64,000 nucleotides of DNA from an uncultured Nitrospirales bacterium (GTDB lineage Bacteria > UBA10199 > JADGCS01). Positions 2,092 through 45,636 of this stretch are shown here, piece by piece. The stretch covers positions 199,537 to 263,536 of the forward strand of contig CAZSTS010000003.1 in the NCBI GenBank assembly GCA_964609965.1, in the 5' to 3' direction. The notes under the pieces were generated by a model. It made no database searches. It saw nothing but the letters and a program-made list of their open reading frames with translations, and had not been told where the DNA came from. Made by a program: the position numbers and the translations under genes. Every line of letters starts with the position of its first letter. Position 1 is the stretch's first letter.

Positions 2092-2096
2092 ATCCT

Positions 2097-3758
2097 ATGC
2101 GAGCAACAGTCCCCTTTAAAATCACCTCAGATAATGACATAATGAGCGTTTTTGAGAATTCATTTCAAAAGCTCCAAAAAGCTCAGGAAAAAATATTTTT
2201 TTCGAGCCGTCTTTGTAATGATATTAAAATAGCCTTTATCGAAGCTGTAGCAAATGCTGTCAAACATGCTGGAGAACTAAAGAAGCACGGTGCTGTCGAG
2301 GGTAAGTTTGTCTTGGATGATAAAGTCATTGGGTTTGAAGTCTACGATCACGGAGCAGGATTCGCTATTGACGAAATTCCCGTGCCCAATCTTAATGATC
2401 TTAAGGCTTCTGGCCGTGGTGTTTTTATGATGAAGCAACTTGGGGATATTGTGACTTATCGGGAGCAAAAAAATCACAACACTTTGCTTTTTAAAAGAAA
2501 TCTTGTTGGTCATCATGGGAGTTCTCGCGAGCTTGATTTACTTTATGATCTTAGCGAAGCCATTATTAGTAATGCGAGCAAAGAAGAAGTTTACCAAATT
2601 GTACTAGGACAGGCCTTAGAGCTGTTTCATGTAGAGAGAGCTTCGATCCTTATTTATGATGAAAAGGAAAAGGTGCTCAAAGTAGCTGCTAGCCGAGGGA
2701 TTCCTCAAAAAGTGCAGAAGCAAACATCGGTGCGCTCAGGTGAAGGCGTGAGTGGTTATGTTTTTCAACACTCAAGACCCTTGCTCATAGAAGATGTTGA
2801 TAGAAATACTCGCGGCATAGAAAAAAAGGAACATTATAAAACATCATCTTTTATTTCAGCTCCTATGATCTGTTCACCACTGAGGTTAGATGAGAAGCCC
2901 ATTGGTGTTATAAATCTCACAGATCGCATTGATGGCAAAAGCTTTACAAAAAAAGACCTCAAATTGCTTTCTACAATAGCCAATCAAGCGATGGCCTGTT
3001 TGTATATTAGGGGGTTGGTAGATGAAATCAAAGAAAAGAACAGGCTTGAACAAGAGATGGAGCAGGTTCGTGTTATTCAAAGTTCTTATTTGCCAATAAA
3101 GCCACCAAAAGTGCCAGGGTATAAAATAGCTGGTCGTTGTGAAATGGCTCAATCAGTTGGTGGAGATTATTTTGATTTTCTGTATTTTGATCCACTGCTG
3201 TATCTTGTTGTGGCCGATGTTTCTGGCCATAATACAAGCAGCGCTGTGACCATGGTCAATTTTCGTTCTCAGCTCAAAGCTTACCTTAATGAGTTGTCAG
3301 ATCCTGCCAATATATTAACTAAACTTAATAAATCCCTTTATCACGATCTCACTCATGCGGAGCAATTTGTATCATGTTTGCTGGTCAAAATTCATACAAA
3401 AACAGGGCAGTTTGAATTAGCTAATGCGGGTCATTATCCTCCTGTCTTTCTAAAAACTCATGTGCCCATTACTGAGGCAGGTATTGTGCTTGGTGTTCAA
3501 GAGAATGAGGAATACAAAACAATAAAAGGTAAGATCAATCAAGACGATGGCATGATTATGTACACAGATGGCGTGATCGAAAGCATGGATGGAGAGTGCA
3601 ATGTATTTGGTTTGAGTCGACTTCATGAGATAGTTTCAAACAAAAGTTCTGATGCCAGTCAGGTTTTAGTGGATCATATTATTGATTCTGTATTAGGCTA
3701 TAGAGCGAGTGCTGGTGTGTTGGATGACATTACTGTTGTGGGAGTGAGAAGAGGTTAA
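2097..3758 (+). CDS. Fused RsbW-like serine kinase (HATPase) / GAF domain / PP2C (SpoIIE/RsbU-like) phosphatase
   Basis: N-terminal N-box (EAVANAVKHAG), G1 (DHGAGF) and G2 (GRGVFMM) boxes. Central GAF-like region. C-terminal PP2C motifs (GDYFDF, ADVSGHN, YTDGV, DDITVVGV). Confidence 0.8.
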   Translation: MRATVPFKITSDNDIMSVFENSFQKLQKAQEKIFFSSRLCNDIKIAFIEAVANAVKHAGELKKHGAVEGKFVLDDKVIGFEVYDHGAGFAIDEIPVPNLNDLKASGRGVFMMKQLGDIVTYREQKNHNTLLFKRNLVGHHGSSRELDLLYDLSEAIISNASKEEVYQIVLGQALELFHVERASILIYDEKEKVLKVAASRGIPQKVQKQTSVRSGEGVSGYVFQHSRPLLIEDVDRNTRGIEKKEHYKTSSFISAPMICSPLRLDEKPIGVINLTDRIDGKSFTKKDLKLLSTIANQAMACLYIRGLVDEIKEKNRLEQEMEQVRVIQSSYLPIKPPKVPGYKIAGRCEMAQSVGGDYFDFLYFDPLLYLVVADVSGHNTSSAVTMVNFRSQLKAYLNELSDPANILTKLNKSLYHDLTHAEQFVSCLLVKIHTKTGQFELANAGHYPPVFLKTHVPITEAGIVLGVQENEEYKTIKGKINQDDGMIMYTDGVIESMDGECNVFGLSRLHEIVSNKSSDASQVLVDHIIDSVLGYRASAGVLDDITVVGVRRG

Positions 3759-19123: not shown

Positions 19124-20089
19124 CTATTCCATATCTGCAATTCCCGTACCTTCTGTGTTAGAAGCTTGTCTGTTATCGCTAATAGGATGTTTTCCAAAAA
19201 CAGTGTGGCGTGTTCGTGATTTTCCTGATTCTCGTTGTGGAGAATCTAGAACATTAAGAGTTGGACCGTTTCGTGTTTGATACGTGGTGAGGCTTTGGCC
19301 AAGTGTTCCATCAATCCCTTCGGTCAATTCATCGAGTTCCATTGCAAGAGCTAATGTTTCGGGACGATATTCAGTGTTCGAAAGATTTTCATAGGGTTCT
19401 TCGAGTTCAATTGATTCAGCACCAGGAAAATCTGCAAAGGCATCAAAGGGTTCTACATCAGTAGCATCTGCGAGGGCATCAAGGGGTTCAGCATCAGGAA
19501 CAGCCAAACCGCGAGCTTCAACCAGCGCATCATGGGATGTGTAAAACGAAAGTGAACCTGTGAGATATTCAAATCCTTCGTTTTCTCCGTTTCCTTTGTT
19601 TGGTTTTTGAATAATATAAGCAGCAGCGCCGTATTCTTCAGTGTTTCTTCCCAGATCTCTTTCTAAAACACCTAGGAGGCCTTCTGCTGGAATGGTTGTT
19701 GCGGTTAAAGTATAGCCTCCATCCTCTGGTTGATAATCTGCAAATCTTGTTAATTCGAGATCCATGAAGTTAGATATATCATCGGCAAAAATAGTTGTGT
19801 TGAAGGGCCTGTCTAGATTTGAAAATTCACCATCAGTTCGGGTCATTGTGACAGTTGCGCCTTCTTTGAGTGATTTTTGTCTAGCGCCGTTTGAGTCAGT
19901 GTACCATGTGTAGGCATCTGAGTTTGCTGATAAGGTACTGGGATCAACACCGTTTAATTCGGCAAGTCTTTCAAGGCTTGAATAATCCCAAGCCAAATTA
20001 GCTACGCTTTCAGCAGTAACTTCTTGATCACTATCTCTGACCATGTCTTCAAACTGTTCTCTAGTTGGTATTGTAAATTCTATTTGCAT
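19124..20089 (-). CDS. Hypothetical acidic protein (321 aa); distal gene of the unknown cluster
   Basis: ORF only, no recognisable domains. Convergent with the response regulator, with a 6-bp gap. Confidence 0.45.
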   Translation of the reverse strand: MQIEFTIPTREQFEDMVRDSDQEVTAESVANLAWDYSSLERLAELNGVDPSTLSANSDAYTWYTDSNGARQKSLKEGATVTMTRTDGEFSNLDRPFNTTIFADDISNFMDLELTRFADYQPEDGGYTLTATTIPAEGLLGVLERDLGRNTEEYGAAAYIIQKPNKGNGENEGFEYLTGSLSFYTSHDALVEARGLAVPDAEPLDALADATDVEPFDAFADFPGAESIELEEPYENLSNTEYRPETLALAMELDELTEGIDGTLGQSLTTYQTRNGPTLNVLDSPQRESGKSRTRHTVFGKHPISDNRQASNTEGTGIADME

Positions 20090-20319
20090 AATATCTCCTA
20101 ATCCTGTTTTTTAGCCCTGATTTTATGCCCTGTAGCGCTTGTTCTAAACAAGCTGTCACTATTTATATAAGCAAGATGCGTGCCAAAGTGACAAGTTTTA
20201 AGTTACTGTAATTACTTGTTAATTAATGTGGTGATTTGTTAAGAGATGTCTAAAGACCCCAAATTACAGAAAAAGAGGAGAAAATTGTCTGCAGGGTGTT
20301 GAAAATGTATATCTACGCG

Positions 20320-21807
20320 TCAGTAGTAGAGATAGGCTTTATTTTCATACGATTTAATGATGTCACCAAAGCAGTGTTGCTCAGAGAAGTAGGGTGTGAA
20401 ATGATTTGCCATGTCTTTTAAAAAACGACCATCGTAATATTCCTGGGCAGCATCAATTCCTTCTAAGTAAAATATTAGACAAAGGGCATTCATGCGATCA
20501 GTCATGTATTGATTTGCTTCTTTCATGGAACAGAACTCAGGTTTTTTATTGCCAGAGATTTTGGGCTCTGTTTTTTTCCACTCTTCTGCTGCCAATTCTT
20601 GAAAACGCTCGTCTCCATATAATTGACGTTGTTTCTCAAACAGGTAAACAGTATTTTCTATTAAATCTTGTGTTATGTCTAAAACATTTGAATAGCTGAA
20701 TTCGGATAAGGCTCTTTGACGTAGCTTCTTTGCTGGTTTTCCGCTGTGCAATTCTCTCCAGGCTATTTGATACATGCGTGGCTGATAAGGTTTGGGCATA
20801 TGCCTTGATTGAGAATCATAAAACACTCTCATGGGTGTATTGAAAAGAGGGCTTTCTTGAAAATTTTGATAGGAATTTTCGCTTAAGGTTTCTTGTCTAG
20901 CAAAGTCTCCTCTAAATTCATAAAAATCAGCATCTCTAAAGCCTTTGGTCATGATGTATACTTTAGTGCATAGAATTTCGGCATCAACTTCAGCTTGCAT
21001 GAGATTAGTTTCAGCTCCAGTTTCTGACATTTGGTATTCGTGATAACATTCATGGGCAAAAGCTGGAATAAAAGGGATGAGCGTTAATTCAGGATCGAAT
21101 GCCTTTAAAGGGTCAGTGAAATAAGGTTTTGGAAAATCAATGCGTCTTTGATGAGGGTTATAACTTGATTGGACAGCGATTACCCGGTGTGAGTCTTCGT
21201 CATAAGCAATTTTACCATCGAGAGCTCCAAAATTAAAGCGTCCTGACTCTATCCACTGTAATGTATAATCAAGAAAAGAATCGAATTCTCCATCAGGGAG
21301 GATGGCTTTGTTTCCTTGGGCTACCCAATGATCGTGAGTTTCTTTCACATTATTCATGGCCAGCCATGCAAGAGCAACAACTTGGGCTCCATTTTGATTG
21401 ATGCCGTGATAAGTGAGGAGAACAGGGATAAGTCTTTCTACAAGGTTTACAATATTGGAAATGCCTTCTGACGTTTTTTCGATGACTTGTGCGAGTGTGC
21501 CTAAGTCAAAATCTTCCCAACGTTCAAGTAAGGGATCAACTTGTCTTTTGAGAATTTTTTCTATGATTTCTAATCGCCAATTTCTAAAAGTGGGAGGGCC
21601 TGTTGGAGAACCTGATAATTCGTTAAGAATAGGGTTCCTATAATCACCCATATTCTTAAAATCATCCATCTCAAAGATGATGTCACCGTCATTCAACCTT
21701 GAAATTTCCAAGGCGGCCATCTCAATAGGAGATGCAATATTGCCAGCTTCTAGCGTAGCTTCAACATAGCCAAGATCTATGGATAATAAGTCTGAAGAAT
21801 ATGTCAT
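20320..21807 (-). CDS. Hypothetical 495-aa protein with a single HExxH motif (AHECYHEYQ); possible metallopeptidase-like
   Basis: ORF plus motif only. No signal peptide. Confidence 0.45.
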   Translation of the reverse strand: MTYSSDLLSIDLGYVEATLEAGNIASPIEMAALEISRLNDGDIIFEMDDFKNMGDYRNPILNELSGSPTGPPTFRNWRLEIIEKILKRQVDPLLERWEDFDLGTLAQVIEKTSEGISNIVNLVERLIPVLLTYHGINQNGAQVVALAWLAMNNVKETHDHWVAQGNKAILPDGEFDSFLDYTLQWIESGRFNFGALDGKIAYDEDSHRVIAVQSSYNPHQRRIDFPKPYFTDPLKAFDPELTLIPFIPAFAHECYHEYQMSETGAETNLMQAEVDAEILCTKVYIMTKGFRDADFYEFRGDFARQETLSENSYQNFQESPLFNTPMRVFYDSQSRHMPKPYQPRMYQIAWRELHSGKPAKKLRQRALSEFSYSNVLDITQDLIENTVYLFEKQRQLYGDERFQELAAEEWKKTEPKISGNKKPEFCSMKEANQYMTDRMNALCLIFYLEGIDAAQEYYDGRFLKDMANHFTPYFSEQHCFGDIIKSYENKAYLYY

Positions 21808-21933
21808 GTTTGTATACCCTGTATTTAGCCCCTGAGTAAAACCTGTATCGGGAGAGGGTTTGAGAAGTTGTGTGTTTTTTACAAGGTGCGTAAAAATATG
21901 GTTTTACTACATTTTTGGGATAGTTGGAGGGGG

Positions 21934-22398
21934 TTAGGCAGCTTTCTTAAAAACAATGTCTACAGTGCAATCCAGTGCTGAAAGTAATTTAATCATCTGA
22001 TCGATAGATTTGTTGTAAAAGGTTTGATCCAAAAGACGGTAGAATTGTGTGGGTGATGTTTGCATGCGTCTAATGATTTCGCGTTTATTGACTTTGTTTT
22101 TCTTAATAAGCTGTTGTGCTTTGAGAGTAAGCTTATAGAGAAGCATATTTGTTAAATAATCTAGGTCTGCATTATAGTCTAGTACCTGATCGATATGAAT
22201 CGTGTCTTCCTTTCCTGATTCTAAGGTATATGTAAAAGCCTCGTTTCCTAATTCGCTGTCAACGTATACATCACTAATTTTATTAGTAAGAGTAGGTTTT
22301 AATTTTAGACGAGAATAGGGGAATACGTATTCTTTGCTACTTGTTGTTAATTCGAAATGTTTTTTTTTGTTATTATATGTGATATTTTTAATCTTCAT
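21934..22398 (-). CDS. DUF2442-like N-terminal domain fused to a C-terminal HTH-like region
   Basis: N-terminal pattern (VDSELGNEAFTYTLESGKEDTIHIDQVLDY) resembles DUF2442. C-terminal region (REIIRRMQTSPTQFYRLLD...) is HTH-like. 4-nt ATGA overlap with the upstream DUF4160 gene. Confidence 0.5.
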   Translation of the reverse strand: MKIKNITYNNKKKHFELTTSSKEYVFPYSRLKLKPTLTNKISDVYVDSELGNEAFTYTLESGKEDTIHIDQVLDYNADLDYLTNMLLYKLTLKAQQLIKKNKVNKREIIRRMQTSPTQFYRLLDQTFYNKSIDQMIKLLSALDCTVDIVFKKAA

Positions 22399-22598
22399 AA
22401 TAAACCTTCTTTTTGTAATTCTACTATAATTTTTAATACACGTTTTGATGGGGTTCCGACCATGGCTTTGTTTTCATCAAGATCCCATTTGAGAATCAGT
22501 TTCTTATTATGATAAACATGAACATGGTTCCCATGATCGCCAATCCAACTTAGGAAAATGTAATTTCCTCTTTTTATTTTGCCCATAAATAGTACCAT
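22395..22598 (-). CDS. DUF4160-family small protein
   Basis: GKIKRGNYIFLSWIGDHGNHVHVYHNK closely matches the DUF4160 signature (..DHNPPHFH..). An alternative start lies at the second Met. Confidence 0.6.
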   Translation of the reverse strand: MVLFMGKIKRGNYIFLSWIGDHGNHVHVYHNKKLILKWDLDENKAMVGTPSKRVLKIIVELQKEGLL

Positions 22599-22786
22599 AT
22601 ATGTAACTATTTGTCAAAATAGTTCTTGTTGATATTCCTGCTGGTAGAGTGTTTTGCAAGGATGATGCCAAGAGATGAATATAATTAAAATCAATTAAAA
22701 CAACATTTTAAAGCGCTGGGTCATTTGAGTGAGTCTCATGAGATTGGGCGAGTCCCATTTTTGGGACTGATGGGACTAAAGTGGGA

Positions 22787-23614
22787 CTAATATAAAATCA
22801 AATATCCAGCTATAAATAGCCATGCCAGAAGATCAAATAGTCCTAAGGTAAGAAAAATAATAGACCAGATCACAGCAGATGTGCCTCTAAAGATGTTTGT
22901 TTCCCATTCACCAGGGATTCTAATTTCTTTTTTAAGGAAACCAATCAGAGCATAAAGAAAAAACCATGCATGAAGACCGATGAGCATGATACTAAAACTG
23001 AATCCAAAAAGTTTTAGTGCCAAAGGAGAGGTGAAAAAGAAAAAGAAGGCTGCCATGATAAGAAACAAAACAATTCCACAAAGAGATGCTTTTCTAAAAA
23101 TCAATTTTAAGTTTTGAAGTCTTGTGATTTTATTCTTTGAGGCAAGGGGTTTTAATTTATCAAGTCGTTTCAGTTCTCGTTCTTTATAGGCTTGTAGATC
23201 AAAGGTTCTAATGGCATCCCATTTTCTATCACTAATTTTCTTTATGTATTTAAGATCAGTTTTTCTCAAAAATCCTAAAACTTCAAAAAGCACAGATTCT
23301 CTGATTTTGTCTTCTGTGCTCAAAGGTGTTGTCTTGTTTTTGACCATCATGCCACAGCCAATAAAGATGCTGGCTAGAAACAGACCAAAGAAGAGGGCGA
23401 TTATTAAATAGATGAGACTGTCTGCTTTGTCTTGATAGCCAGTAAAGCCAAGATAGAGGCAAAAGAAGAAAACCAGTCCACCAAATAATAAACCAGTCCA
23501 ATACGCGTGTTTTCCAAAGCGTGTTTCTGCCCAGGCTACATATTTTTCGACTTCCACGTTTTGATTTTCTAAAATGGTTTGGGCTTGTTTTGAAAAAAGA
23601 TTTTTTAAGGACAT
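22787..23614 (-). CDS. Integral membrane protein (275 aa, about 5 TM helices with a basic cytoplasmic loop)
   Basis: Hydropathy pattern only. Confidence 0.5.
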   Translation of the reverse strand: MSLKNLFSKQAQTILENQNVEVEKYVAWAETRFGKHAYWTGLLFGGLVFFFCLYLGFTGYQDKADSLIYLIIALFFGLFLASIFIGCGMMVKNKTTPLSTEDKIRESVLFEVLGFLRKTDLKYIKKISDRKWDAIRTFDLQAYKERELKRLDKLKPLASKNKITRLQNLKLIFRKASLCGIVLFLIMAAFFFFFTSPLALKLFGFSFSIMLIGLHAWFFLYALIGFLKKEIRIPGEWETNIFRGTSAVIWSIIFLTLGLFDLLAWLFIAGYLILY

Positions 23615-23637
23615 GGTATTGTTTAATCAGAGATACA

Positions 23638-24669
23638 TTAGTCTTCGAAGAAAGTATCAATCCAAGGTGATTCTGGTTTTGAATTATCCCAAGGTCTCAG
23701 GCCTAAAAACTCTTCAGTAAAAGCCCAGGGGTTAATGCTAGAACCTGTTATCCCGTCTATCCAAAACTCTGTTACTTTATCACCTGCTTCTGGTACTGTG
23801 GCCATTTCAAGTGTAGGGTCCATGTCATCATCTTCAAGTGTAGGTACTCGAGTTGTTGGTGCAATCATAGATACATTGGTTGGAGTATGTCTGAAGCGCA
23901 TTTTGTCTCCAAATTGGACAATATCTCCTGTTTTAAGAGTCCATGCATAATACCCAGTTACTTCCTTAATCACAGATGCTGTCATCGTATATGGGTCAAT
24001 TTGAGTAATTCTAATATGATCGTTTAGCATTTCTTCCACGCTAGCTGGCTTATCGCGCGTTCTTTCATATTCTATCACATATATTTCAGTTGGTCTTGAG
24101 CGGCTTTTTAAATTGCGGATAATGTAAATAGGGATATTTTTGCTGAAAGTAGTTATACTGAATTCATCTTTTTTCTCCTCATATTGCATTGCCAATAAAT
24201 TACCTGAGCGTTGGAAGGAATAGCCCCCACGTTTTCTGAGATATCTAAAAATGGATTGTTTAAGAGGACCTACATCAGGTGTTAACAGGATGGGCACATA
24301 GCCTTTTTGTAAAGCCCTAGTTGTGAAAGCGCTAGAAGCCAGGTCTTTTATTTCAATTTGTGTGGGGAGAGTTGCGTGCCATGTACCAGCGGCGATGGCG
24401 CCAGCTGGTTCGGGGACAGCATGAGCTGATGACGCGACACCACGTTTGCTAGCGTCAGCTGCTAAACCTGGTGCGTCCGGGACAGCGCGAGCGGGACCTG
24501 ATCCACTGGGACCTACTAAAACAAAACCATCACTGTCTTCGTTGCACAAATTCGTTGATCCGTATTGGAGCAACCATTGCATTTTGGTGGGCATAGTTTG
24601 AAATACATCAGCTCCTGGCAAAGCAGTATTTCCAAAACCAAGAGTAGGATTTAAAGTTAAATAACTCAT
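23638..24669 (-). CDS. Hypothetical cytoplasmic protein (343 aa) with an internal Gly/Ala/Pro-rich linker encoded by a GC-rich patch
   Basis: No signal peptide. Degenerate P-loop-like string VLVGPSGSGPARA. Lies 23 bp upstream of the membrane protein gene. Confidence 0.5.
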   Translation of the reverse strand: MSYLTLNPTLGFGNTALPGADVFQTMPTKMQWLLQYGSTNLCNEDSDGFVLVGPSGSGPARAVPDAPGLAADASKRGVASSAHAVPEPAGAIAAGTWHATLPTQIEIKDLASSAFTTRALQKGYVPILLTPDVGPLKQSIFRYLRKRGGYSFQRSGNLLAMQYEEKKDEFSITTFSKNIPIYIIRNLKSRSRPTEIYVIEYERTRDKPASVEEMLNDHIRITQIDPYTMTASVIKEVTGYYAWTLKTGDIVQFGDKMRFRHTPTNVSMIAPTTRVPTLEDDDMDPTLEMATVPEAGDKVTEFWIDGITGSSINPWAFTEEFLGLRPWDNSKPESPWIDTFFED

Positions 24670-24671
24670 AA

Positions 24672-25331
24672 TTAAATAAATGTAGGCAGAACAAACGCTA
24701 CTACTTTTCCGTCATTTCTATTTTGTTTTAATTTGATTCTCTCTCCAGGAAATAAAGCAATGCTTTGTCCAGGTGTGAGTGGGAGCCATGTGCCAAGGTC
24801 ATCCATGAAATAAAAGATAAGATCACCCGAACGGTTTGTATTATGGTCTGTGTTAGTGAGGATCCATCTTGCTTTTCTTGTTCCTTTTGCTCTGTGTGGA
24901 TCGAGTTCAAAACTCACATCAAATTCTCTAAGAGAATTAAAGTCTGTTTTTAGAAGACGTTGACCAGTTCGTTCTGATTTTCTTCTTCTCGCTCTTATTT
25001 CTGTAGTGAGTAAGCCAATGAGTTGTTCACTCAATGTCATTCTTATTTCTGGTTCTAGATCCCAATACGAAGTTCCTCCAGAAGCATCAGGTCCTTGTTC
25101 TCCATATCTTTGCCTTACTCCAAAATCTAAATCATTTTCTGTATCCTCACATACAAATGAATCAAGACAGGCAAGTGGTAGTCTTGTTTGAGGTGTGTCT
25201 TGAAATAGAGCAGGATCAACTAATTGAAAGGCCTGTACGGTTTGTTCTCCTGTGCCTAGCCATTGAGCCATGTTAAGATAAAATAAACTCCCAGTGGCTT
25301 CGGGTCTAAAATTGGACATGTAACTGGACAT
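24672..25331 (-). CDS. Hypothetical cytoplasmic protein (219 aa), translationally coupled to the 343-aa protein
   Basis: 2-bp gap to the downstream gene. No known motifs. Confidence 0.5.
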   Translation of the reverse strand: MSSYMSNFRPEATGSLFYLNMAQWLGTGEQTVQAFQLVDPALFQDTPQTRLPLACLDSFVCEDTENDLDFGVRQRYGEQGPDASGGTSYWDLEPEIRMTLSEQLIGLLTTEIRARRRKSERTGQRLLKTDFNSLREFDVSFELDPHRAKGTRKARWILTNTDHNTNRSGDLIFYFMDDLGTWLPLTPGQSIALFPGERIKLKQNRNDGKVVAFVLPTFI

Positions 25332-25443
25332 TTTTCTCTAAAATTCCTTAGCTAACAAATTATTAACGGGTACACCTTGAACACAAATGATTTAGTCAAC
25401 TTATCGGTATATTAAACCATTTGTTTCGATGGGAAGGGAGATT

Positions 25444-25463
25444 TCGTGTCCTTGGGGACACGA
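25444..25463. promoter_or_regulatory. Perfect palindrome TCGTGTCC-TTGG-GGACACGA; candidate operator or UAS (internal copy)
   Basis: 8-bp perfect arms with a 4-bp spacer, about 115 bp upstream of the start of the 24672-25331 gene. Same motif as 27626-27645 and 27658-27677. Confidence 0.6.
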
Positions 25464-25465
25464 AG

Positions 25466-25505
25466 GAGTTTGGAGTGATGAGTAATGAGCGATGAGAAAT
25501 GACAT
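25466..25505. repeat. Tandem heptanucleotide array (ggagttt ggagtga tgagtaa tgagcga tgagaaa tgacata)
   Basis: 7-nt periodicity directly adjoining the palindrome. Confidence 0.6.
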
Positions 25506-25519
25506 AAGGCATATGTCTT

Positions 25520-26062
25520 TTATATCAATTCATAATAGAAATAACATGTCGAGTAAGTATTAGAAGGTTCGCAGACGCATTCAATGGATTCATCTGAGTG
25601 TTCTATGTTATAAATTTCACATTCACAGGGAAAAATAACAGAAGGGTGGCCATACCAGTCTAGGTAATTTGTTTCGAATTCAAATGTGTCGTCAGAATAA
25701 ATCACCGCATTCCATATGAGTTGGCCTGAGCTTGTTTCAAAGTCCATCATGTCATCATAGGAATAAACATCTAAGTATGTTGGTAATTCCAAATCAGGAT
25801 CATCATACCCGTAGTCATCGCATGTAGAATAATATTCATTAAGCTCATACGATCCAAAAAAGCTACGAGATGAACCCTTATAATAACTAGACCAATAGTC
25901 TAGGCCGCCTGAGGGATCATCTTCATCACAATCATCGTATTCCTCGTAGATGTACTCTGTTTCGGTGTATGAATAGACTTCATCATCATGCCAGTACTCA
26001 TGACAAGATGTGAGCATAAAAAATGAGATCAAACAGAAGCTTAATAATATATTTTTCATCAT
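25520..26062 (-). CDS. Extremely acidic Tyr/Asp/Glu/Cys-rich lipoprotein (180 aa)
   Basis: Lipoprotein signal (LTSC). The mature part is dominated by Y, D, E and 9 Cys (ECVCE, CEC). Confidence 0.55.
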   Translation of the reverse strand: MMKNILLSFCLISFFMLTSCHEYWHDDEVYSYTETEYIYEEYDDCDEDDPSGGLDYWSSYYKGSSRSFFGSYELNEYYSTCDDYGYDDPDLELPTYLDVYSYDDMMDFETSSGQLIWNAVIYSDDTFEFETNYLDWYGHPSVIFPCECEIYNIEHSDESIECVCEPSNTYSTCYFYYELI

Positions 26063-26086
26063 ATTTCCCTCACCTTGGAATCATGG

Positions 26087-26386
26087 TTACAAAATGATGT
26101 GCAAAAATCCAAACAACCCACAGTTTCTGTGGTGGTGTCGATTATAGCAGGGGTAAGAGCAACCATGTCCATGGCAACAACTTCTGTGGGAGTAGCGTGA
26201 GTAATGACGATGGTGTGATTTGTAATGTTTGACGTGTTTGGTTACATGTTTGTGGACATGTTTTTTATGGACGACGTGACTTTTATGGCTATGTTTGTGG
26301 TGTTTTTTAGCATAGCTGTCTGGGCTATGAAGCATGAGCATCGAAAAAACGACTATAACACTAATAATGAGTAGTACTTTCTGCAT
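26087..26386 (-). CDS. Hpn-like His-rich, Cys-containing secreted protein (99 aa)
   Basis: Signal peptide, then KKHHKHSHKSHVVHKKHVHKHVTKHVKHYKSHHRHY ... SCCHGHGCSYPC. Resembles His-rich Ni/Zn-binding proteins such as Hpn, including the CC-HGH element. Confidence 0.55.
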   Translation of the reverse strand: MQKVLLIISVIVVFSMLMLHSPDSYAKKHHKHSHKSHVVHKKHVHKHVTKHVKHYKSHHRHYSRYSHRSCCHGHGCSYPCYNRHHHRNCGLFGFLHIIL

Positions 26387-26577
26387 GATTCCCTCCTATT
26401 GTTAAAATCCCCTTAATTTCTGTGTTCTGAAAAGGTTAATCGATGGGAGGGCTGAAATAGTTTTAATTAATTGAGATTGATGTATTTATAGCGGAATATC
26501 GTAAATTATGCGAAGTTGTTGCTTGAGTGAGAAGTTAGCGCGGTTCTTTTTTCAACAAAAGAGATCCTTAAACAAGA

Positions 26578-27015
26578 TTAAAACTTCTTACCAGGTCCAC
26601 CGTGAATTTCAGGATATTTGGTTTTTTGAGTTTCTGAAGCAGCTTCTTCAGCTGGAAAAAATTCTGCGCCACCATTTGCTTTAAAGGCTCTTCGAGCACG
26701 CCAGTCTAGAATCCTGGTCACGTAATCTTGAGCAACTGATCTGGATTTTGTTTTTAATACAGCAGCTAGGTCTTGAGAGGCTCTGGCTAAACACTCAGCT
26801 TGTGAGGGATCTGCTTCAGGATCCTCTTTCACTAATTTACTACGACCATAATCAATGAATTCTTTTTTTTCTACATCTTCGTTGATGCCCCAGGTAGTAA
26901 AACCTTTTCCATTGTCAAAGAGTATAAGCTCAGGATGTAGGTCGTAATAATCGGTTTCTTTACTAGCTGCTGTTTCAAACGAAGCAAAGTTTACACATGG
27001 AAATTGGTCATACAT
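26578..27015 (-). CDS. Hypothetical 145-aa protein, paralog B of a tandem pair
   Basis: Shares blocks YYD..P.L..FDNG.G.TWG.N.DVEK.E...YGR, ARASQDLA.VL.TK..SVA.DYVTRILD and FKANGGA.FFPAEEAA with the neighbour. Confidence 0.55.
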   Translation of the reverse strand: MYDQFPCVNFASFETAASKETDYYDLHPELILFDNGKGFTTWGINEDVEKKEFIDYGRSKLVKEDPEADPSQAECLARASQDLAAVLKTKSRSVAQDYVTRILDWRARRAFKANGGAEFFPAEEAASETQKTKYPEIHGGPGKKF

Positions 27016-27083
27016 GGCATTTTTCCTTTACAATTTAGGAGATTGTTTTTTTGTTTAAAAACAAAAAGATGTCTAATAATATT

Positions 27084-27539
27084 TTACCATTTACGTGAGT
27101 TTTGTGGTGCAAAAAGTTCTGTGCCAGAATGACTAGGTTCGTCAGCTGCTTCTTCAGCAGGAAAAAACGCTGCACCACCATTTGCTTTAAATACTGTGGC
27201 TGCGTCTTTGTCTAGAATTCTGGTAACATAATCAGTGGCAACGCTTTTAGGTTTAGTTTGCAAAACCAGAGCCAGATCTTGAGAGGCCCTTGCTAAAGCT
27301 TCGGCATCTGTGACTTCTTTATCAGAATCACTAGCTTGCAATGCTTTTCTTCCGTATGCGGTAAGTTCACGCTTTTCTACATCACTATTGAGACCCCAGG
27401 TAAAAGCACCATCACCATTATCAAAGGGTTTGAGGTCAGGATTTTGGTCGTAATAACTAAGTTGCTTTTCAGCAGGGTTGTTAGCGACTTCAGGTGCAGT
27501 TTCATTTCTATATTGTGCGGATAGGGCTTCATCTAACAT
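27084..27539 (-). CDS. Hypothetical 151-aa protein, paralog A of a tandem pair; first gene of the cluster
   Basis: See paralog B. No signal peptide. Confidence 0.55.
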   Translation of the reverse strand: MLDEALSAQYRNETAPEVANNPAEKQLSYYDQNPDLKPFDNGDGAFTWGLNSDVEKRELTAYGRKALQASDSDKEVTDAEALARASQDLALVLQTKPKSVATDYVTRILDKDAATVFKANGGAAFFPAEEAADEPSHSGTELFAPQNSRKW

Positions 27540-27625
27540 AGTATTTCTCCTTCTAACGGGCTGACATTAATACAAGTGCCTTACTAGTATATTTATCGCA
27601 TGAAAAAAACTGAAGTTACGCGGGT

Positions 27626-27645
27626 GATGCAATTTTCGTGTCCTT
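27626..27645. promoter_or_regulatory. Palindrome TCGTGTCC-TTTG-GGACACAA; candidate operator or UAS (proximal copy)
   Basis: About 95 bp upstream of the start of the first cluster gene. One mismatch in the right arm. Confidence 0.55.
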
Positions 27646-27657
27646 TGGGACACAAGA

Positions 27658-27677
27658 TTTGAAGAAATCGTGTCCTC
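27658..27677. promoter_or_regulatory. Palindrome TCGTGTCC-TCAA-GGACACGC; candidate operator or UAS (distal copy)
   Basis: 32 bp centre-to-centre from the proximal copy, which is three helical turns. Confidence 0.55.
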
Positions 27678-27915
27678 AAGGACACGCCTGATAGCGTTAA
27701 AGCTGTTAAATATTGTTGTATCTTGTTGAAATATTATGCTGATTTCCTATTGCCATTACGACAAATTCTGTTTTTTGACGCCCAAAATTTATGATTTAAT
27801 AAGCAACACAGATGAAATATAAGCCGATAAATAAAGTATAACGAAGAGTGAAGAAAGCGATACATTAGCATATAGGGTGCCAAAAATCGCAACAATTTAA
27901 AGCATATAGGATACC

Positions 27916-28839
27916 ATGAATAAGCAAAAATCACTTAAAACGCTTAATGTGTTTCAATATGATGATTACCGCCAATTTTTAGCTGATTTTTATGAGCTGA
28001 AAAAGAAGGAAATGCCCACTAAGTTCTCATATCGTTTTTTGAGTCAAAAAGCTGGGTTTCAAACATCTACTTTTTTTCATCGTGTTATTATTGGTAAACG
28101 TAATCTCACTTTAGAGAGTATACGTAAAATCGCTGCTATTATTCCTCTTACTGGACGTCCTTATCAATATTTTGAAACACTTGTTCTCTTTAATCAGGCC
28201 AAAACAGAAGAAGAGAGAATGATTCATTTTGATGCTCTTAAAGAATTTAAAGAATTCATAGCTCTCAGACTCATTAACGAAGATCAATCGACTTACTTAT
28301 TAAAATGGTATTACCCAGTTGTGAGAGAGATGATTAAATGGGATGGTTTTAAACCTGATGCTAGTTGGATAGCCAACAAGATTAGACCTAGAATATTTGT
28401 TAAGCAGGCTGAAGAAGCTATGGAAGTTTTGCTTAAACTTAAATTAGCAACAGTTTTAGCTGATGGTACGTGGGAACAATCTTATCCAAAAATTATGACT
28501 GAAGAAGAAGGTTTAGGCCAAGAAGCCATTAGCTATCATAAAAATGCAATTCACTTAGGCCAACAGGCTCTGACTTTACCAGCCAAAGATAGACATGTAA
28601 GTGCCATGACTATTTCCATGTCTCCTGCGTTGTTTGAATTGATGCGCCAGAAAATTTACATCTTTCATAAAGAGATGTCTGGTCTTATTTCAAAAAAACT
28701 CGATAAAACACTTTTAAGAAAAAACAATATTGATGAAGAAATGATTAACTCTAAGGGATTTTTAGATGTCTCAGAGGTTTGTCAGTTTAATATGCAAATG
28801 TTTAAGGTGGCTAAAACAGGGAGAAAAGATGAAGAATAA
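27916..28839 (+). CDS. Putative HTH transcriptional regulator (TIGR02147-like family), divergent from the unknown operon
   Basis: N-terminal YRQFLADFYE...FSYRFLSQKAGFQTSTFFHRVIIGKRNLT pattern. The family assignment is from memory and is weak. Confidence 0.4.
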   Translation: MNKQKSLKTLNVFQYDDYRQFLADFYELKKKEMPTKFSYRFLSQKAGFQTSTFFHRVIIGKRNLTLESIRKIAAIIPLTGRPYQYFETLVLFNQAKTEEERMIHFDALKEFKEFIALRLINEDQSTYLLKWYYPVVREMIKWDGFKPDASWIANKIRPRIFVKQAEEAMEVLLKLKLATVLADGTWEQSYPKIMTEEEGLGQEAISYHKNAIHLGQQALTLPAKDRHVSAMTISMSPALFELMRQKIYIFHKEMSGLISKKLDKTLLRKNNIDEEMINSKGFLDVSEVCQFNMQMFKVAKTGRKDEE

Positions 28840-30922
28840 ATTATATACGATCATGGGTGTCCTCATTACTGTATTTTGTGTTTCTTGCTTTGGATCAGGC
28901 ATGTCTGATTCTTTAGACACAGGCACAGGTCTTGATGATGAAGGTTCAACAACAAGTATTACGGTCATTGGTAATCCTTCGCTCAAAGTGAATAACACAG
29001 GGACTGTTTATCTTATTGATAACCTAGACTCAGACAATTTTAAGTTCTTTAGCGATACAAGTATTGAAAGTGTTTTGAGTCTCACAGTAGCAAATACAGA
29101 TTTAGCTGAAGACGCGATTCTTGACACTCCTGTTCCAGCTATTGATGGTTTTGTTCTTAGTCCAAACAATGAAACTGAAATGGTTTTTGTTCTTGAGGCG
29201 TCATTCGTAGTTAATGACCAAAATTGCTTTGTTGTTTTTGTTGATAGCGCAGAAGAAAAATGTATTCACGAAGCTAAAATTCAAGACAAACCTCAGTTTG
29301 ATGCAAATGGAAATGTGTATTTCTATGATAATAATTTAGAATTAGGTACAGAGGGGCTTGTAAAGTGGGCTAAGGCCACTGGCGAAAAAATCTACATTAC
29401 TAATCCTAATTTTGAACTTGCACAGCAGATGGTACACGCTGATGGCACAGTCTATCTGACTGATACAGCGGGATCTTTAAGAACAGTGAGCCCTGATAAT
29501 ATACTCAGTAATCGTCTTTCGGGTGATCGTGTTGATTCATTTAATATTGTAGATGCCAATATTCTCTTGCTTCAAGGTGAGATTACTTTTGAAGAAGAAC
29601 AGAGCTATGGGTATTATTTTTATGATCATACGGAGAAAGAAATTATCGCGGTTTTAGATTACAATGGCAATGCTGACCTTTCATCCTCTATGTATGTTGA
29701 TGGTGAAAATAGGATCTTGGTTCAAGATGGTGACAGTATAATCAAGATTTATCCTGGTGTGTCTGAAATAATTGAGCTTGGTTTAACTCAAATTAATTTT
29801 AGCATAGTTCATGATAATACCCTTTTTGCCTCTGGTAGGGTAGAAGGCACGCAAAAGTTTGTTAAACTTGACTTAAGTGATGAAGAGGCTGCTCCTGTGA
29901 CAGTGCTCAGTGGTCACGAAGTGTATAATGCAGAACTCGGTTCTAACTCTAATCTATACTATGATGCGCAGAACTTTAATACTAATCAGTACTATCTTGG
30001 TATTTTAGACGTCACAACCAATGATGTGATTTTTACTGAAGAGGTTTTAGATGGTTCTGTTGTTAATATTGATTCTGTTTATTCAATCAATAATAATTCA
30101 TTTTCTGAAATCACGTTTGAAACAAATACACCTTACGCTCTTGTGAGAGCTGCCACTGCGCAACGTGGGGAATTTGTTAAAGGCAGACTATTAGAAGATG
30201 TTGATCTCACAATTGATTTTGATGCTGAAATCTATCGCAAAAGATTTCAGAATGGTAAGCTACGCTTCACTGTTGACAGTGCTGCTAGTATAAGAGTGAT
30301 TAAGCCAAGATTGAACTGGGTTTATGAAGTAGAATCAGATGCAACCGACACTCAGGACTTAAGCCATTTGAATATTGATAAAATCACATTGTTATCTGCT
30401 TCAGAAAACCTCGTTGGTATTTTGGCAACAAGAAAAATCTATGGCGATCAAGTGTTTAAAATCTACTCTTATGAGGTTAATGAGTCTGAGAGATCTGTGA
30501 GCTTTACTTTTGAAAAATCTATCATGCTAGATGATAGGGTGTATAATGTTAAAGCAAGCGAAACTGCTGATCGTATCCATTTAGTAAGTCGTCGTGGTGA
30601 TATTACGATGTATAATTTTGATCTAGAATTATTGGCTGAATCGCGTGTGTTTTTTGGACGAGGTAATGTGAGTATTGTTTCTGATACAAATGGTTTCTTA
30701 TTACTCAGAAGCAGCTTCATGACTTCGGCAAATATCTTAAGATCAAAACTATTGATTTTAGATGTGAGCGCTGGTGACTACAATCACATTCAAACAATCA
30801 GAGTAAAAGCAAACAGACACTTACTAAATGCTTCACTGTATGACTCTGAAACAATGGCTATAAAGACTTACTCGCGAACCACTGATATGATCGAATATTA
30901 TATTCTAGAAGAAAACGAGTAG
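28829..30922 (+). CDS. Large lipoprotein (698 aa from MKNKLYT), possibly a beta-rich or propeller-like surface protein
   Basis: Start moved to the ATG at 28829, which has a GGGAGAAAAG RBS. Lipobox VSCFGSG. No catalytic motifs. Confidence 0.5.
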   Translation: MKNKLYTIMGVLITVFCVSCFGSGMSDSLDTGTGLDDEGSTTSITVIGNPSLKVNNTGTVYLIDNLDSDNFKFFSDTSIESVLSLTVANTDLAEDAILDTPVPAIDGFVLSPNNETEMVFVLEASFVVNDQNCFVVFVDSAEEKCIHEAKIQDKPQFDANGNVYFYDNNLELGTEGLVKWAKATGEKIYITNPNFELAQQMVHADGTVYLTDTAGSLRTVSPDNILSNRLSGDRVDSFNIVDANILLLQGEITFEEEQSYGYYFYDHTEKEIIAVLDYNGNADLSSSMYVDGENRILVQDGDSIIKIYPGVSEIIELGLTQINFSIVHDNTLFASGRVEGTQKFVKLDLSDEEAAPVTVLSGHEVYNAELGSNSNLYYDAQNFNTNQYYLGILDVTTNDVIFTEEVLDGSVVNIDSVYSINNNSFSEITFETNTPYALVRAATAQRGEFVKGRLLEDVDLTIDFDAEIYRKRFQNGKLRFTVDSAASIRVIKPRLNWVYEVESDATDTQDLSHLNIDKITLLSASENLVGILATRKIYGDQVFKIYSYEVNESERSVSFTFEKSIMLDDRVYNVKASETADRIHLVSRRGDITMYNFDLELLAESRVFFGRGNVSIVSDTNGFLLLRSSFMTSANILRSKLLILDVSAGDYNHIQTIRVKANRHLLNASLYDSETMAIKTYSRTTDMIEYYILEENE

Positions 30923-31038: not shown

Positions 31039-31656
31039 ATGAAAAATATCTACATCGATTTTGATGATGTTCTTTGCGAAACAGCGAATGCTATTATTGA
31101 ATTAGTTGAGAAAGAGTTTGGTATTAAGCGTCAATTTGAGAACATTTCTGATTTTAATCTTCAAAAATCTTTTGGCCTGTCTGATACACAGTTTAAGCAA
31201 CTTCTCGATTTTGCCCATGACCCCGATGTGGTGTATAATATGCAACCTATTGAAGGCGCTGTTGAAGCTATAAAAAAACTCAAGGGCATGGGGTATGGTA
31301 TTTCGATCATGACAGGGCGTCCGCCTTCTACACGTGAGGATTCCATAAAATGGTTAAAAGATTATCAGGTCCCGTATGATAGTCTCACCTTTGTCGATAA
31401 ATATTCACGTTTTATTTCTGGTTTAGATAAAGATGTTGCGATTACTTTAGATCAGTTACAAGAATTAGAGTTTGCTTTTGCTATAGAAGATTCTGGGCAC
31501 ATGGCTTTGTGTTTGGCCAATCAAATGAATGTACCAGTCTTTCTCCATGACCGACCTTGGAATCGTTTTATTGAAGAACACGAGGAATTAAAATCCGATA
31601 AGATTCACCGTTGTTCAGATTGGAAGGAAATTCTTAATAAGCTTCAATCTCTATAG
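31039..31656 (+). CDS. HAD-superfamily 5'(3')-deoxyribonucleotidase-like protein (NT5C family)
   Basis: N-terminal DxDxV motif (IDFDDVLCE) with HAD-like spacing. Confidence 0.6.
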   Translation: MKNIYIDFDDVLCETANAIIELVEKEFGIKRQFENISDFNLQKSFGLSDTQFKQLLDFAHDPDVVYNMQPIEGAVEAIKKLKGMGYGISIMTGRPPSTREDSIKWLKDYQVPYDSLTFVDKYSRFISGLDKDVAITLDQLQELEFAFAIEDSGHMALCLANQMNVPVFLHDRPWNRFIEEHEELKSDKIHRCSDWKEILNKLQSL

Positions 31657-32353
31657 AATGGATTCTGACTCTTGCATCTTCGGTATACAAACCAATTGTA
31701 CCTGCTTGATCTAAAACAGGGATGGCTTCTTCATCTCCATCATAGGTGAATGCAAAAATACCGTCGATAGTCACGCTTACAATCTGTCCGATTTTTTCTA
31801 AAATGATTTCATGTTGAGTGTTGATGAAAGCAAAAGCTTCTGAACCAGTATACAAAAAGGTTTCGCCAACAACATCGTCCGAAATGGCTAACTGAGTGCC
31901 ATTAGTTTTTAAAATAAAATAGTTTGTGAGTTCTGCATTATTTTCATCAAATGTAGCATTAAAGAATAACCAAAAAACTTCCCATTCGTTTGGAATAGGG
32001 GTTCTGAGTTGTTCTTCGTTGGTCACTGCGATTGTGACTTTAAAGTCTGAGATAGGATTTTCTTGGGTGGGGATGTGTGTGACTAAGGAAGAATGTGTTT
32101 CGCTGAGAACGGTTGAAGCCATGGGCTCTAGGACAATGCCCGTTTCTTCAAAGTCTACAGATCCGTAGCCAGTCCACTTTACTTCCCAGTCTTCTTCAGC
32201 AATGGAATTCCAAACCGTGCCAGTGGTTTCAGTTTCAGCTTCTGATTCAGATTCAGATTCAACCCCAGGACTACTTTCAAAAGTGCTTGAGCTGCAGGCT
32301 ATGAATAGAAAACAAATAAGGGTGATGTATGTGAGATGTCTTTTCATGTTCAA
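31634..32353 (-). CDS. Secreted or lipoprotein of unknown function (239 aa)
   Basis: Lipoprotein-like signal (FIACSSS). Its 3' end overlaps the convergent gene by 23 bp. Confidence 0.5.
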   Translation of the reverse strand: MNMKRHLTYITLICFLFIACSSSTFESSPGVESESESEAETETTGTVWNSIAEEDWEVKWTGYGSVDFEETGIVLEPMASTVLSETHSSLVTHIPTQENPISDFKVTIAVTNEEQLRTPIPNEWEVFWLFFNATFDENNAELTNYFILKTNGTQLAISDDVVGETFLYTGSEAFAFINTQHEIILEKIGQIVSVTIDGIFAFTYDGDEEAIPVLDQAGTIGLYTEDARVRIHSIEIEAY

Positions 32354-45081: not shown

Positions 45082-45636
45082 TTAAAAGTGATAATTAAAA
45101 TTTACGCGGACATTTGGAGTGATGAGGTGACCGCTTGCTATATAAGTGTAATTCACACCTACTTGTGGGGCTACAGTCCAGTTATCAGTAATGTAGTATT
45201 CATAACCAAGACCGCCGTCTCCACAAAAACCATGGTACCAACTAGAACCAGTAATGGTGAGGCCTGCAGCTGTGACACCGCCCCAAGCATACATACCAGC
45301 ATAACCACCACCAGCATAAAAGTACAATGTTTCATAAACATTTACTTTTAATGTGGGCATAAAGTTGGAAGCCAAGAAATTAATACCACTATCATTTGTG
45401 TAGTAGGCATCTGATTGAACATAAAGGGCTAGGTATTCATTTAGCTTGTAACCAGCTTGCCAGGTAAGTCCACCGCCAATGGCTCTGAGTTCATTGACTT
45501 CGTAACCTCCAACAAGACCACCAACACCCAGGAACCAACCTGTGTCTTGAGTGTGACCAATCTCTGCTTTAGCAGGAGTGCTAACAAAGAAACCTAAGCA
45601 AATTATCAGACAAATTAAGAGTGTAATTTTTTTCAT
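45082..45636 (-). CDS. Small outer-membrane beta-barrel protein (OmpA-N/OmpW-like)
   Basis: Signal peptide, alternating amphipathic strands and a C-terminal aromatic residue (..NYHF). Confidence 0.6.
   Translation of the reverse strand: MKKITLLICLIICLGFFVSTPAKAEIGHTQDTGWFLGVGGLVGGYEVNELRAIGGGLTWQAGYKLNEYLALYVQSDAYYTNDSGINFLASNFMPTLKVNVYETLYFYAGGGYAGMYAWGGVTAAGLTITGSSWYHGFCGDGGLGYEYYITDNWTVAPQVGVNYTYIASGHLITPNVRVNFNYHF

Follow-up and report, generated by a model that had tools for sequence, protein, structure and literature searches.

The two genes described here lie head to tail on the minus strand of a 64,000-nucleotide (nt) stretch of DNA from an uncultured Nitrospirales bacterium (GenBank assembly GCA_964609965.1, contig CAZSTS010000003.1, positions 199,537 to 263,536 of the forward strand), which is called the window below and by which positions are numbered. 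The first gene encodes a small, basic, His-rich protein, and the second, 24 nt downstream (gap at 26063-26086), encodes an acidic lipoprotein. Comparison across loci indicates that the two form a conserved and functionally linked module and did not come together by chance, since their order and tight spacing are kept in nine of nine loci, they share a promoter, and the genes on either side differ. The pair has the layout of a self-contained two-gene envelope operon that begins at the basic gene. Both protein families are outside every curated library searched (neither protein gave a known family in Pfam, NCBIfam, PHROGs, or PDB sequence and profile searches) and were previously uncurated, and they are defined here as a lipoprotein family and a family of small basic His-rich partners. 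The initial annotation of the window had described an adjacent His-rich open reading frame (ORF) and lipoprotein ORF separated by 24 bp, and both ORFs and the spacing were located as described.

25520-26062, minus strand: acidic lipoprotein gene, 180 amino acids (aa) plus stop, 24 nt 3' of the basic gene
26087-26386, minus strand: basic His-rich protein gene, 99 aa plus stop, ORF kept in eight other loci
26392-26397, minus strand: Shine-Dalgarno sequence AGGAGG, read from the sequence, 5 nt 5' of the ATG of the basic gene
26438-26466, minus strand: promoter-like element resembling the extracytoplasmic function (ECF) sigma type, with TTAAAAC (26466-26460), a 17-nt spacer, and CGATT (26442-26438)

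Conservation of the gene pair and its promoter

The lipoprotein has nine clusters of close homologs, which are 53 to 72% identical to it and whose contigs were examined. All nine loci of this close subfamily that have upstream sequence, including the window, carry a small basic ORF immediately 5' of the lipoprotein gene and on the same strand. The ORF is full length at seven of these loci (L007, L008, L009/L010, L011, L023, L024, and the window) and is cut by the end of the contig at the other two (L013 and L016). The full-length partners are only 26 to 46% identical to the basic protein of the window, yet they are built to the same design. The gap between the basic gene and the lipoprotein gene was 12 to 82 nt in the five loci measured, and the genes flanking the pair are unrelated from locus to locus. 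The basic partner is missing at all three distant loci of the lipoprotein family that were examined (L014, L015, and L022).

The basic gene is largely invisible in protein databases because gene callers often miss it or pick the wrong strand. Public assemblies of the same organism, consisting of marine metagenome scaffolds from SUTE22-1, SCRA20-1, and JGI samples with contigs of up to 271 kb, contain identical DNA at the six loci checked, with the lipoprotein gene called and the basic ORF uncalled. Among the relatives, the antisense strand was annotated at L009 and L023 and there was no call at L008; the His-rich genes concerned lie at 15-296 on the minus strand of L009, at 327-548 on the minus strand of L023, and at approximately 270-545 of L008, corresponding to 26087-26386 of the window. 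A word-based homolog search with the His-rich protein returned no candidates, and no called gene on record encodes exactly this protein. Scans for further loci in genomes and in metagenome contigs yielded one locus each. Low-complexity His-rich genes are a systematically under-annotated class, of which this gene is a practical reminder.

It is nearly inconceivable that the 99-codon ORF is a chance or antisense artifact and that the lipoprotein gene is the only real one. The lack of a call in the public assemblies examined and the choice of the antisense strand in L009 and L023 would fit such an artifact, and a low-complexity composition lowers coding scores. Against this, a strong Shine-Dalgarno sequence precedes the ORF, it is the basic gene and not the lipoprotein gene that the conserved promoter precedes, and the same position, orientation, N-terminal signal, invariant Cys, and C-terminal motif recur in eight other diverged loci, by which the idea is effectively refuted. 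The basic ORF is a real gene, because its conservation across loci together with the Shine-Dalgarno sequence and the promoter leaves little room for chance.

The sequences 5' of the basic genes do not align with one another, with the exception of one promoter element. The sequence TTTAAACC-N17-CGTTG, exact in all 13 bases, is found a single time in each of L007 (the same locus as L012), L008, L011, and L023 and nowhere else in 24 loci, and L024 carries a variant with one base changed, TTTAAAACC-N16-CGTTG. The conserved element sits 46 to 131 nt before the ATG of the basic gene. The window has a degenerate copy, TTAAAAC-N17-CGATT, in which CGA stands where the others have CGT and which begins 56 nt upstream of the ATG. 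A looser pattern, AAAC-N17/18-CGWTK, occurs about five times per 128 kb of searched strand, as chance predicts; its presence on the correct strand within approximately 130 nt upstream in six of six loci is therefore far beyond chance. The loose pattern was not found at the three distant lipoprotein loci. Promoters of ECF sigma factors are marked by AAC in the -35 element and CGT in the -10 element (PMC5758882), and the element of the relatives has both, with a spacer of approximately 16 to 17 nt. By this resemblance, the pair is read as being driven from an ECF-type sigma promoter ahead of the basic gene.

Other searches for regulatory features returned little. No Sigma70_r2/r4 protein was found among the approximately 50 larger window ORFs scanned (at least 100 aa), the leader matched no Rfam riboswitch or RNA element even at an E value of ≤1, and a scan for sigma-70 promoters gave nothing above the shuffled expectation. 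A terminator scan gave two terminator-like matches, both inside coding sequence.

Architecture of the two proteins

The basic protein can be divided into four parts.

26309-26386, minus strand: predicted Sec signal peptide, residues 1 to 26 (MQK, a 16-residue hydrophobic core, and SPDSYA, with cleavage before KK)
26207-26308, minus strand: polycationic low-complexity segment, residues 27 to 60, with 13 His, 11 Lys plus Arg, no acidic residue, and no Cys
26117-26206, minus strand: His/Tyr/Cys block, residues 61 to 90, HYSRYSHRSCCHGHGCSYPCYNRHHHRNCG, with 7 His, 5 Cys, and 4 Tyr
26090-26116, minus strand: C-terminal hydrophobic strand motif LFGFLHIIL-COOH, conserved across loci

The 99-aa sequence reads MQKVLLIISVIVVFSMLMLHSPDSYA up to the predicted cleavage site and KKHHKHSHKSHVVHKKHVHKHVTKHVKHYKSHHRHYSRYSHRSCCHGHGCSYPCYNRHHHRNCGLFGFLHIIL after it. 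The mature protein of 73 aa would contain 21 His (29%), 15 Lys plus Arg (21%), no Asp or Glu, and 5 Cys. It is a compositional extreme: at full length it is 22% His, and the runner-up among the 72 window ORFs of at least 80 aa is 5% His. The most frequent dipeptides are KH, HH, HK, SH, and HV; the initial annotation had noted a signal peptide followed by a chain dominated by HK, HV, and HS dipeptides. The longest run of His is 3 residues in the window protein and 1 to 5 in its relatives. The motif CCHGHGCSYPC, which had been reported to end the protein, is present and lies internally at residues 70 to 80, followed by YNRHHHRNCGLFGFLHIIL. Five residues are invariant among the partners (window numbering): Ala26, Cys76, Gly93, Ile97, and Leu99.

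The N terminus has one Lys before the hydrophobic core, and the predicted cleavage site reads SPDSYA followed by KKHH. All seven full-length members have a c-region of the form [ST][DV][SAC][YFW]A followed by K or R, with the Ala at -1 invariant, from which we infer export and cleavage after Ala26. The very basic early mature region is atypical of a Sec substrate, and the alternative is an uncleaved anchor with its N terminus outside and its C terminus inside (N-out/C-in). Across the full-length partners the polycationic segment that follows is 20 to 51 aa long and contains 8 to 21 Lys plus Arg, 2 to 13 His, and no Cys. In L010 it includes an 18-nt tandem repeat encoding KRHHTV in approximately 3.7 copies, and repeat expansion has thereby built part of the segment.

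The 30-aa block before the C-terminal tail contains 6 to 13 His, 1 to 5 Cys, and 1 to 7 Tyr in seven of the seven full-length partners. Every Cys of every partner is confined to this block, one of them (Cys76) being the invariant Cys, and the combination of His and Cys is the one compositional feature retained in all partners. Its composition makes the block a candidate metal-binding or disulfide segment, and the arrangement of His, Cys, and Tyr would be compatible with a metal site. The tail has the pattern [ILVFY]-G-x-[IL]-x-I-x-L in eight of nine loci; L013 ends instead in GGYIHIGIGF.

The lipoprotein consists of a signal peptide, a linker, and a domain.

26003-26062, minus strand: lipoprotein signal peptide with lipobox L-T-S-C, the lipidated Cys being residue 20, read from the sequence
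25913-26002, minus strand: acidic Tyr-rich linker, residues 21 to 50, HEYWHDDEVYSYTETEYIYEEYDDCDEDDP, net charge of -14, 20% Tyr
25523-25912, minus strand: C-terminal beta domain of approximately 130 aa, predicted to be an eight-stranded up-and-down beta structure, with six invariant Cys

The lipobox fits the consensus [LVI][ASTVI][GAS]C and Cys20 is nearly invariant in 51 family members, in keeping with the lipoprotein class. The mature protein (161 aa) has a net charge of -39 and is 41% Asp, Glu, and Tyr, which upholds the earlier description of a chain dominated by these residues and corrects its figure of about 45%; the CxC/CEC clusters mentioned with it were found as CEC and CVC motifs. 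In the paired subfamily the linker is short, approximately 30 to 44 aa, and a Y-x-Y-E-E-Y core is conserved. The confidence of the AlphaFold2 (AF2) model is low in the linker (block means of 59 to 61), which is consistent with disorder. The domain, modeled on the 51-sequence alignment, is predicted as eight consecutive strands with a mean predicted local distance difference test (pLDDT) score of 89 and means of 88 to 98 for 10-residue blocks over the domain. Its invariant Cys (positions 81, 146, 148, 162, 164, and 173 of the 180 aa) follow the pattern C...CxC...CxC...C. Three disulfides appear to be a more natural reading of these residues than a metal center, because all six Cys are invariant throughout the family and at least five are in predicted beta strands.

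A profile of the close homologs recovered 63 cluster representatives among 1.84 billion proteins, and in the family members examined a lipobox is followed by a low-complexity acidic linker and then by a C-terminal domain of approximately 125 aa. None of the 51 lipoprotein-family members has a Pfam family match, a search of PDB profiles with the family was empty, and Foldseek found no match to the beta domain at an E value of ≤0.001 in PDB or BFVD. The weak Foldseek matches include many eight-stranded up-and-down barrels (lipocalins, avidins, the NHBA C-domain, and HpuA; template modeling [TM] scores of ≤0.49, best E value of 0.065) and also FabZ and thioesterase proteins of the hot-dog fold. 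The beta domain is therefore confidently predicted yet has no significant structural neighbor. The model suggests a familiar lipoprotein architecture, consisting of a lipid anchor, a disordered tether, and a small beta domain, in a family that is itself not assignable.

The paired subfamily is rare, with approximately 10 clusters in a collection of 5.8 billion clusters, and it is set apart from the rest of the family by its Tyr-rich linker, its basic partner, and its ECF-type promoter. Tyr makes up 15 to 28% of the linker in the close subfamily and on average 1% in distant members; among the latter, P0011 does have a Tyr-rich linker and would be expected to carry the partner and the promoter too. 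Net charges of linker and domain are alike in close and distant members, and acidity as an adaptation to the partner was rejected, since it is a family-wide property. The confinement of Tyr enrichment to the paired subfamily makes the Tyr-rich acidic linker the best candidate for the partner-binding element. Disordered chains classically make contact through Tyr with Arg or His and through Asp or Glu with Lys or Arg.

Distant members were seen in other settings. All three that were examined stand alone: those in L014 (1301-1897) and L015 (1012-1560) are among small same-strand genes, the one in L022 (4001-4558) lies beside an HNH-like ORF within a 41.7-kb viral contig (IMG/VR UViG 3300025325_000056), and another is near a WYL_2 gene. 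These placements suggest that mobile elements also carry the lipoprotein fold, unaccompanied by the basic partner and the promoter.

Proposed function and alternative explanations

The explanation ranked first, which is put forward tentatively, is that the pair captures or buffers metal in the envelope by means of a basic protein tethered to a lipoprotein. The product of the first gene would be exported by Sec and would consist of a disordered polycationic stretch, the His/Tyr/Cys block, and the C-terminal strand, and the product of the second would be anchored in the membrane and present a flexible acidic Tyr-rich linker and a disulfide-stabilized eight-stranded beta domain. The lipoprotein is proposed to bind and tether the basic protein by pairing its linker with the cationic chain rich in His and Arg, and docking of the C-terminal strand of the basic protein on the beta domain is a further possible contact. 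Once held in this way, the His/Cys block would take up or buffer divalent metal ions (for example, Zn, Ni, Cu, or Co) in the periplasm upon activation of an envelope-signaling sigma factor. Metal capture is ranked first because the His/Cys block is kept in every partner and because metal binding is typical of those exported, disordered, His-rich proteins that have been characterized, such as the periplasmic sponges SilE and PcoE. The charges also count in favor of tethering: the partners carry +9 to +21 from Lys and Arg in addition to 10 to 25 His, and the linker and the whole lipoprotein carry -14 to -17 and -27 to -39, respectively, which are of matching magnitude.

A number of observations weigh against metal capture by a tethered partner. 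Metal handling is plausible from composition only, and the searches made found no sequence or profile likeness of the pair to any metal-binding family; for the basic protein, Pfam, NCBIfam, and PDB gave no family or profile match, the best subthreshold score being that of CopL at an E value of 0.07 (13.8 bits against a cutoff of 40). No metal transporter, metal regulator, or riboswitch was found in or near any locus, where flanking sequence is available no such transporter or regulator is conserved, and the nearest metal-linked candidate in the window, a CNNM/CBS protein 6 kb away, is not conserved. The content of His varies threefold among the relatives (12 to 35%), and it is the positive charge that is conserved. 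The acidity and the six Cys of the lipoprotein are family-wide features that are present also without the partner, and the charge of the linker does not track that of the partner in five pairs. Lys or Arg at +1 and the strongly basic early mature region are unfavorable for Sec, which makes the topology uncertain. The Cys count is odd in six of the seven full-length partners, and odd counts are uncommon among exported proteins that form disulfides. The metal-binding pair suggested in the initial annotation is supported in part, as a conserved envelope pair of opposite charge; its echo of Hpn proved to be one of composition, and no metal genes lie nearby. Two more specific forms of partnership were tried and rejected: stoichiometric matching of partner and linker charges, for which there was no covariation across the five pairs, and an intermolecular disulfide between the odd Cys of the partner and an extra lipoprotein Cys, for which the parity fits three pairs only (the window, L007, and L010).

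Several other functions can be envisaged for such a pair. The basic protein might be a cationic effector, membrane active in the manner of histatin or clavanin and possibly activated by pH or metal, with the lipoprotein as an immunity factor or carrier that sequesters it, and its hydrophobic C terminus might engage membranes or mimic the beta-signal of outer membrane proteins (OMPs); both the effector and this role for its tail seem rather unlikely. A compact two-gene module in unrelated contexts is typical of effector/immunity pairs, the cationic part evolves rapidly by repeat expansion between conserved ends, and the Gly-preceded alternating hydrophobic C terminus resembles a beta-signal. 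The anionic domain of LbpB, which traps lactoferricin in condensates, provides a precedent for sequestration (PMC3896470, PMC11022072). However, the pair encodes no export route past the periplasm, the terminal residue is Leu in eight of nine loci and not the Phe or Trp of canonical beta-signals, library searches found no similarity to bacteriocin or immunity families, and the distant lipoprotein homologs that were examined stand alone, so that the fold is not intrinsically that of an immunity protein. A structural polyelectrolyte pair, in which the two proteins form a tight disordered complex or condensate that alters the charge, adhesion, or surface material of the envelope and in which His, Tyr, and Arg serve as stickers and not as metal ligands, is improbable. 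It would draw on the large opposite charges (four of the seven full-length partners contain no acidic residue), on the enrichment of linker Tyr that is particular to the paired subfamily, and on the predicted disorder and low complexity of both interacting segments, and an ECF-type promoter is consistent with envelope remodeling; however, it leaves unexplained the invariant Cys, the Cys cluster, and the strongly conserved C-terminal strand, and charge covariation across pairs was not seen. The two proteins could also constitute a self-encoded polycation/polyanion envelope system, in which an ECF-induced, exported, disordered protein rich in His, Arg, and Lys is captured very tightly by the Tyr/Asp/Glu-rich tether of its own lipoprotein, an account that does not seem likely. 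Equally hard to favor is its elaboration, in which the two form a disordered complex or condensate and the conserved C-terminal strand docks on or completes the beta domain or else, after release, serves as a membrane-active weapon or mimics a beta-signal. If true, such a system would be a bacterial counterpart of histone H1 and prothymosin alpha or of LbpB and lactoferricin, genetically hard-wired as an operon.

The topology of the basic protein bears on a further explanation, in which it remains as an uncleaved N-out/C-in anchor and serves as a cytoplasmic, membrane-tethered His/Cys metal store or chaperone, similar to Hpn in function, with the lipoprotein merely coregulated. The distribution of charge, with one to three positive charges before the hydrophobic segment and many after it, agrees with the positive-inside rule (PMC9360617). 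A hydrophobic core of 16 to 18 residues is long for a signal peptide and at the same time short for a transmembrane helix, and odd Cys counts with CC/CxC motifs would suit reduced metal-binding thiols. The partners nevertheless keep a signal peptidase I signature (Ala at -1, Ser, Ala, or Cys at -3, and a helix breaker at -5 or -6) that an anchor would not need, and the inferred cotranscription with a lipoprotein gene from an ECF-type promoter also speaks against an anchor, which is accordingly quite doubtful. Hardly credible is a phage spanin-like pair (an inner membrane i-spanin with an outer membrane lipoprotein o-spanin) left from the lysis cassette of a prophage. The order of the genes, an N-terminally hydrophobic protein and then a lipoprotein, is like that of Rz/Rz1, and distant homologs of the lipoprotein occur among small phage-like genes and on one IMG/VR viral contig. 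However, there was no holin, endolysin, or any PHROG match among 10 neighboring window proteins and no tblastn match in 50,697 phage records; the basic protein is a polycation without acidic residues and has no coiled coil or mixed-charge periplasmic domain; the lipoprotein is far larger than typical o-spanins; and the module is found among housekeeping genes in several loci. Strict pairing behind a shared ECF-type promoter opens a function to testing, be it metal buffering, an effector with its immunity factor, or a polyelectrolyte complex of the envelope.

Genomic context and comparison with known systems

The window is ordinary chromosome, with genes for MurJ, purine biosynthesis, acyl coenzyme A metabolism, 3-deoxy-D-arabino-heptulosonate 7-phosphate (DAHP) synthase, and an OMP that ends in NFNYHF. 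The pair lies inside a block of approximately 12 kb (19124-30922) that is flanked by housekeeping genes and whose ORFs have no Pfam, NCBIfam, or PHROG match; the products without a family are 321, 495, 275, 343, 219, 145, 151, and 718 aa long, and the exceptions are a TIGR02147/DUF4423 protein (27916-28839, plus strand) and a Cro/C1-type helix-turn-helix (HTH) protein (21934-22398, minus strand). The block could represent an island specific to the lineage. Immediately 5' of the pair are two tandem paralogs on the minus strand (26578-27015 and 27084-27539, 145 and 151 aa) that are 62% identical over 112 aa, have no family match, and are not beside the pair in other organisms. The gene downstream of the pair (24672-25331, 219 aa) is called as two genes (48 and 169 aa) in SCRA20-1 scaffold_6024 (L003, 4090-4711), which suggests a frameshift or other disruption in that strain variant.

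Elsewhere in the window, a second lipoprotein-like ORF (31634-32347, minus strand) has an FIAC lipobox-like motif, an acidic Ser/Glu-rich stretch, and the C terminus IHSIEIEAY, and it has no Pfam match. The genes for a sigma-54 activator (261-1634), a STAS protein (1753-2091), and a HATPase_c_2/GAF/SpoIIE phosphatase protein (2097-3758) together form a partner-switching regulatory module at 261-3758 on the plus strand. A small OMP_b-brl outer membrane protein (45082-45636, minus strand) ends in the canonical beta-signal ...VRVNFNYHF, which serves as a comparator for the tail of the basic protein and shows that the organism is diderm.

The hosts of the pair belong to uncultured lineages of the former Deltaproteobacteria, including a magnetotactic UBA10199 genome; one host is a marine metagenome bacterium, and the names of its samples suggest low-oxygen water. 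The neighbors of the pair are PriA, Def, and short-chain dehydrogenases in L007, FG-GAP proteins in L008, a serpin and a CGGC-domain protein in L011, and a radical SAM enzyme in L016. The contig of L007 and L012 (JADGCS010000030.1 of GCA_015228875.1) belongs to nXX_bin1, the metagenome-assembled genome (MAG) of a magnetotactic member of the phylum UBA10199 in which magnetosome clusters of both the magnetite and the greigite type have been reported (PMC7602337), and this host is the only species-representative genome that carries the pair. A link to magnetosomes was considered and rejected: the pair is not beside a recognizable mam gene in L007, and scans of the window brought up no magnetosome gene.

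Compared with established systems, the pair has the defining features of two classes only, the lipoproteins and, at the sequence level, the ECF-type promoters. By the comparisons made, it does not qualify for Hpn, for the curated families of periplasmic metal-binding proteins (CopL, SilE/PcoE, ZraP, CusF, and others), for the lipocalins, for the spanins, or for proteins with OMP beta-signals. The likeness of the basic protein to Hpn that the initial annotation had pointed out is one of composition, with no family match behind it, and a BLASTP comparison of the mature protein with Hpn gave no alignment at an E value of ≤100, a result that is indicative only. Both proteins are small and very rich in His and have a CC/GCC-type Cys motif, a composition that would lead one to expect metal binding. 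However, Hpn is cytoplasmic and has no signal peptide, whereas all seven full-length basic proteins have an N-terminal signal; Hpn has runs of 6 to 7 His, whereas those of the window protein do not exceed 3; and Hpn contains Glu and Gln, whereas the mature part of the window protein is 21% Lys plus Arg. The window protein also differs from Hpn in its conserved hydrophobic C terminus and its lipoprotein partner.

The last nine residues of the partner are like an OMP beta-signal in being hydrophobic at positions 0, -2, and -4 with polar residues between and in having Gly 5 to 6 residues from the end. They are unlike one in ending with Leu (eight of nine loci) and not with Phe, Trp, or Tyr, the organism's own OMP ending in NFNYHF, and a barrel is out of reach for a protein as small and polar as the basic one. 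The lipoprotein shares its predicted layout of lipid anchor, disordered linker, and C-terminal eight-stranded up-and-down beta domain with the lipocalin Blc, TP0751 of Treponema pallidum, the C-domain of Neisseria NHBA, and HpuA. In contrast to these proteins, it has six invariant Cys, an extremely acidic linker, and no significant Foldseek match. The eight sequential strands predicted in the AF2 model, with block means of 88 to 98, might close into a barrel of the lipocalin type; the best lipocalin found by Foldseek was 2hlv (E value of 0.13, TM scores of 0.34/0.40), and none of the 51 members has a Pfam lipocalin match.

LbpB is alike in being a lipoprotein with a low-complexity, strongly anionic region that is able to sequester polycationic peptides (PMC3896470, PMC11022072). 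It is a large bilobed receptor of the TbpB type whose ligand is a host peptide, whereas the polycation here comes from the same operon and the folded part of the lipoprotein is one small beta domain for which no homology to LbpB was detected. The nearest functional analogy to metal capture by a tethered basic protein is offered by SilE/PcoE, ZraP, and CopL, which are small, Sec-exported, disordered, His-rich, periplasmic, and induced by envelope or metal signals. The basic protein has no profile match to proteins of the SilE/PcoE type, lacks Met-rich motifs, and lies outside a metal resistance operon, and it differs from them further in that a lipoprotein is dedicated to it and its C-terminal strand is conserved. 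In function, such His-rich metal sponges and pairs of an anionic lipoprotein with a cationic peptide come closest to the pair. The pair is read as an ECF-controlled envelope operon of a small protein and a lipoprotein, from two uncurated families, whose His-rich component may well bind metal.

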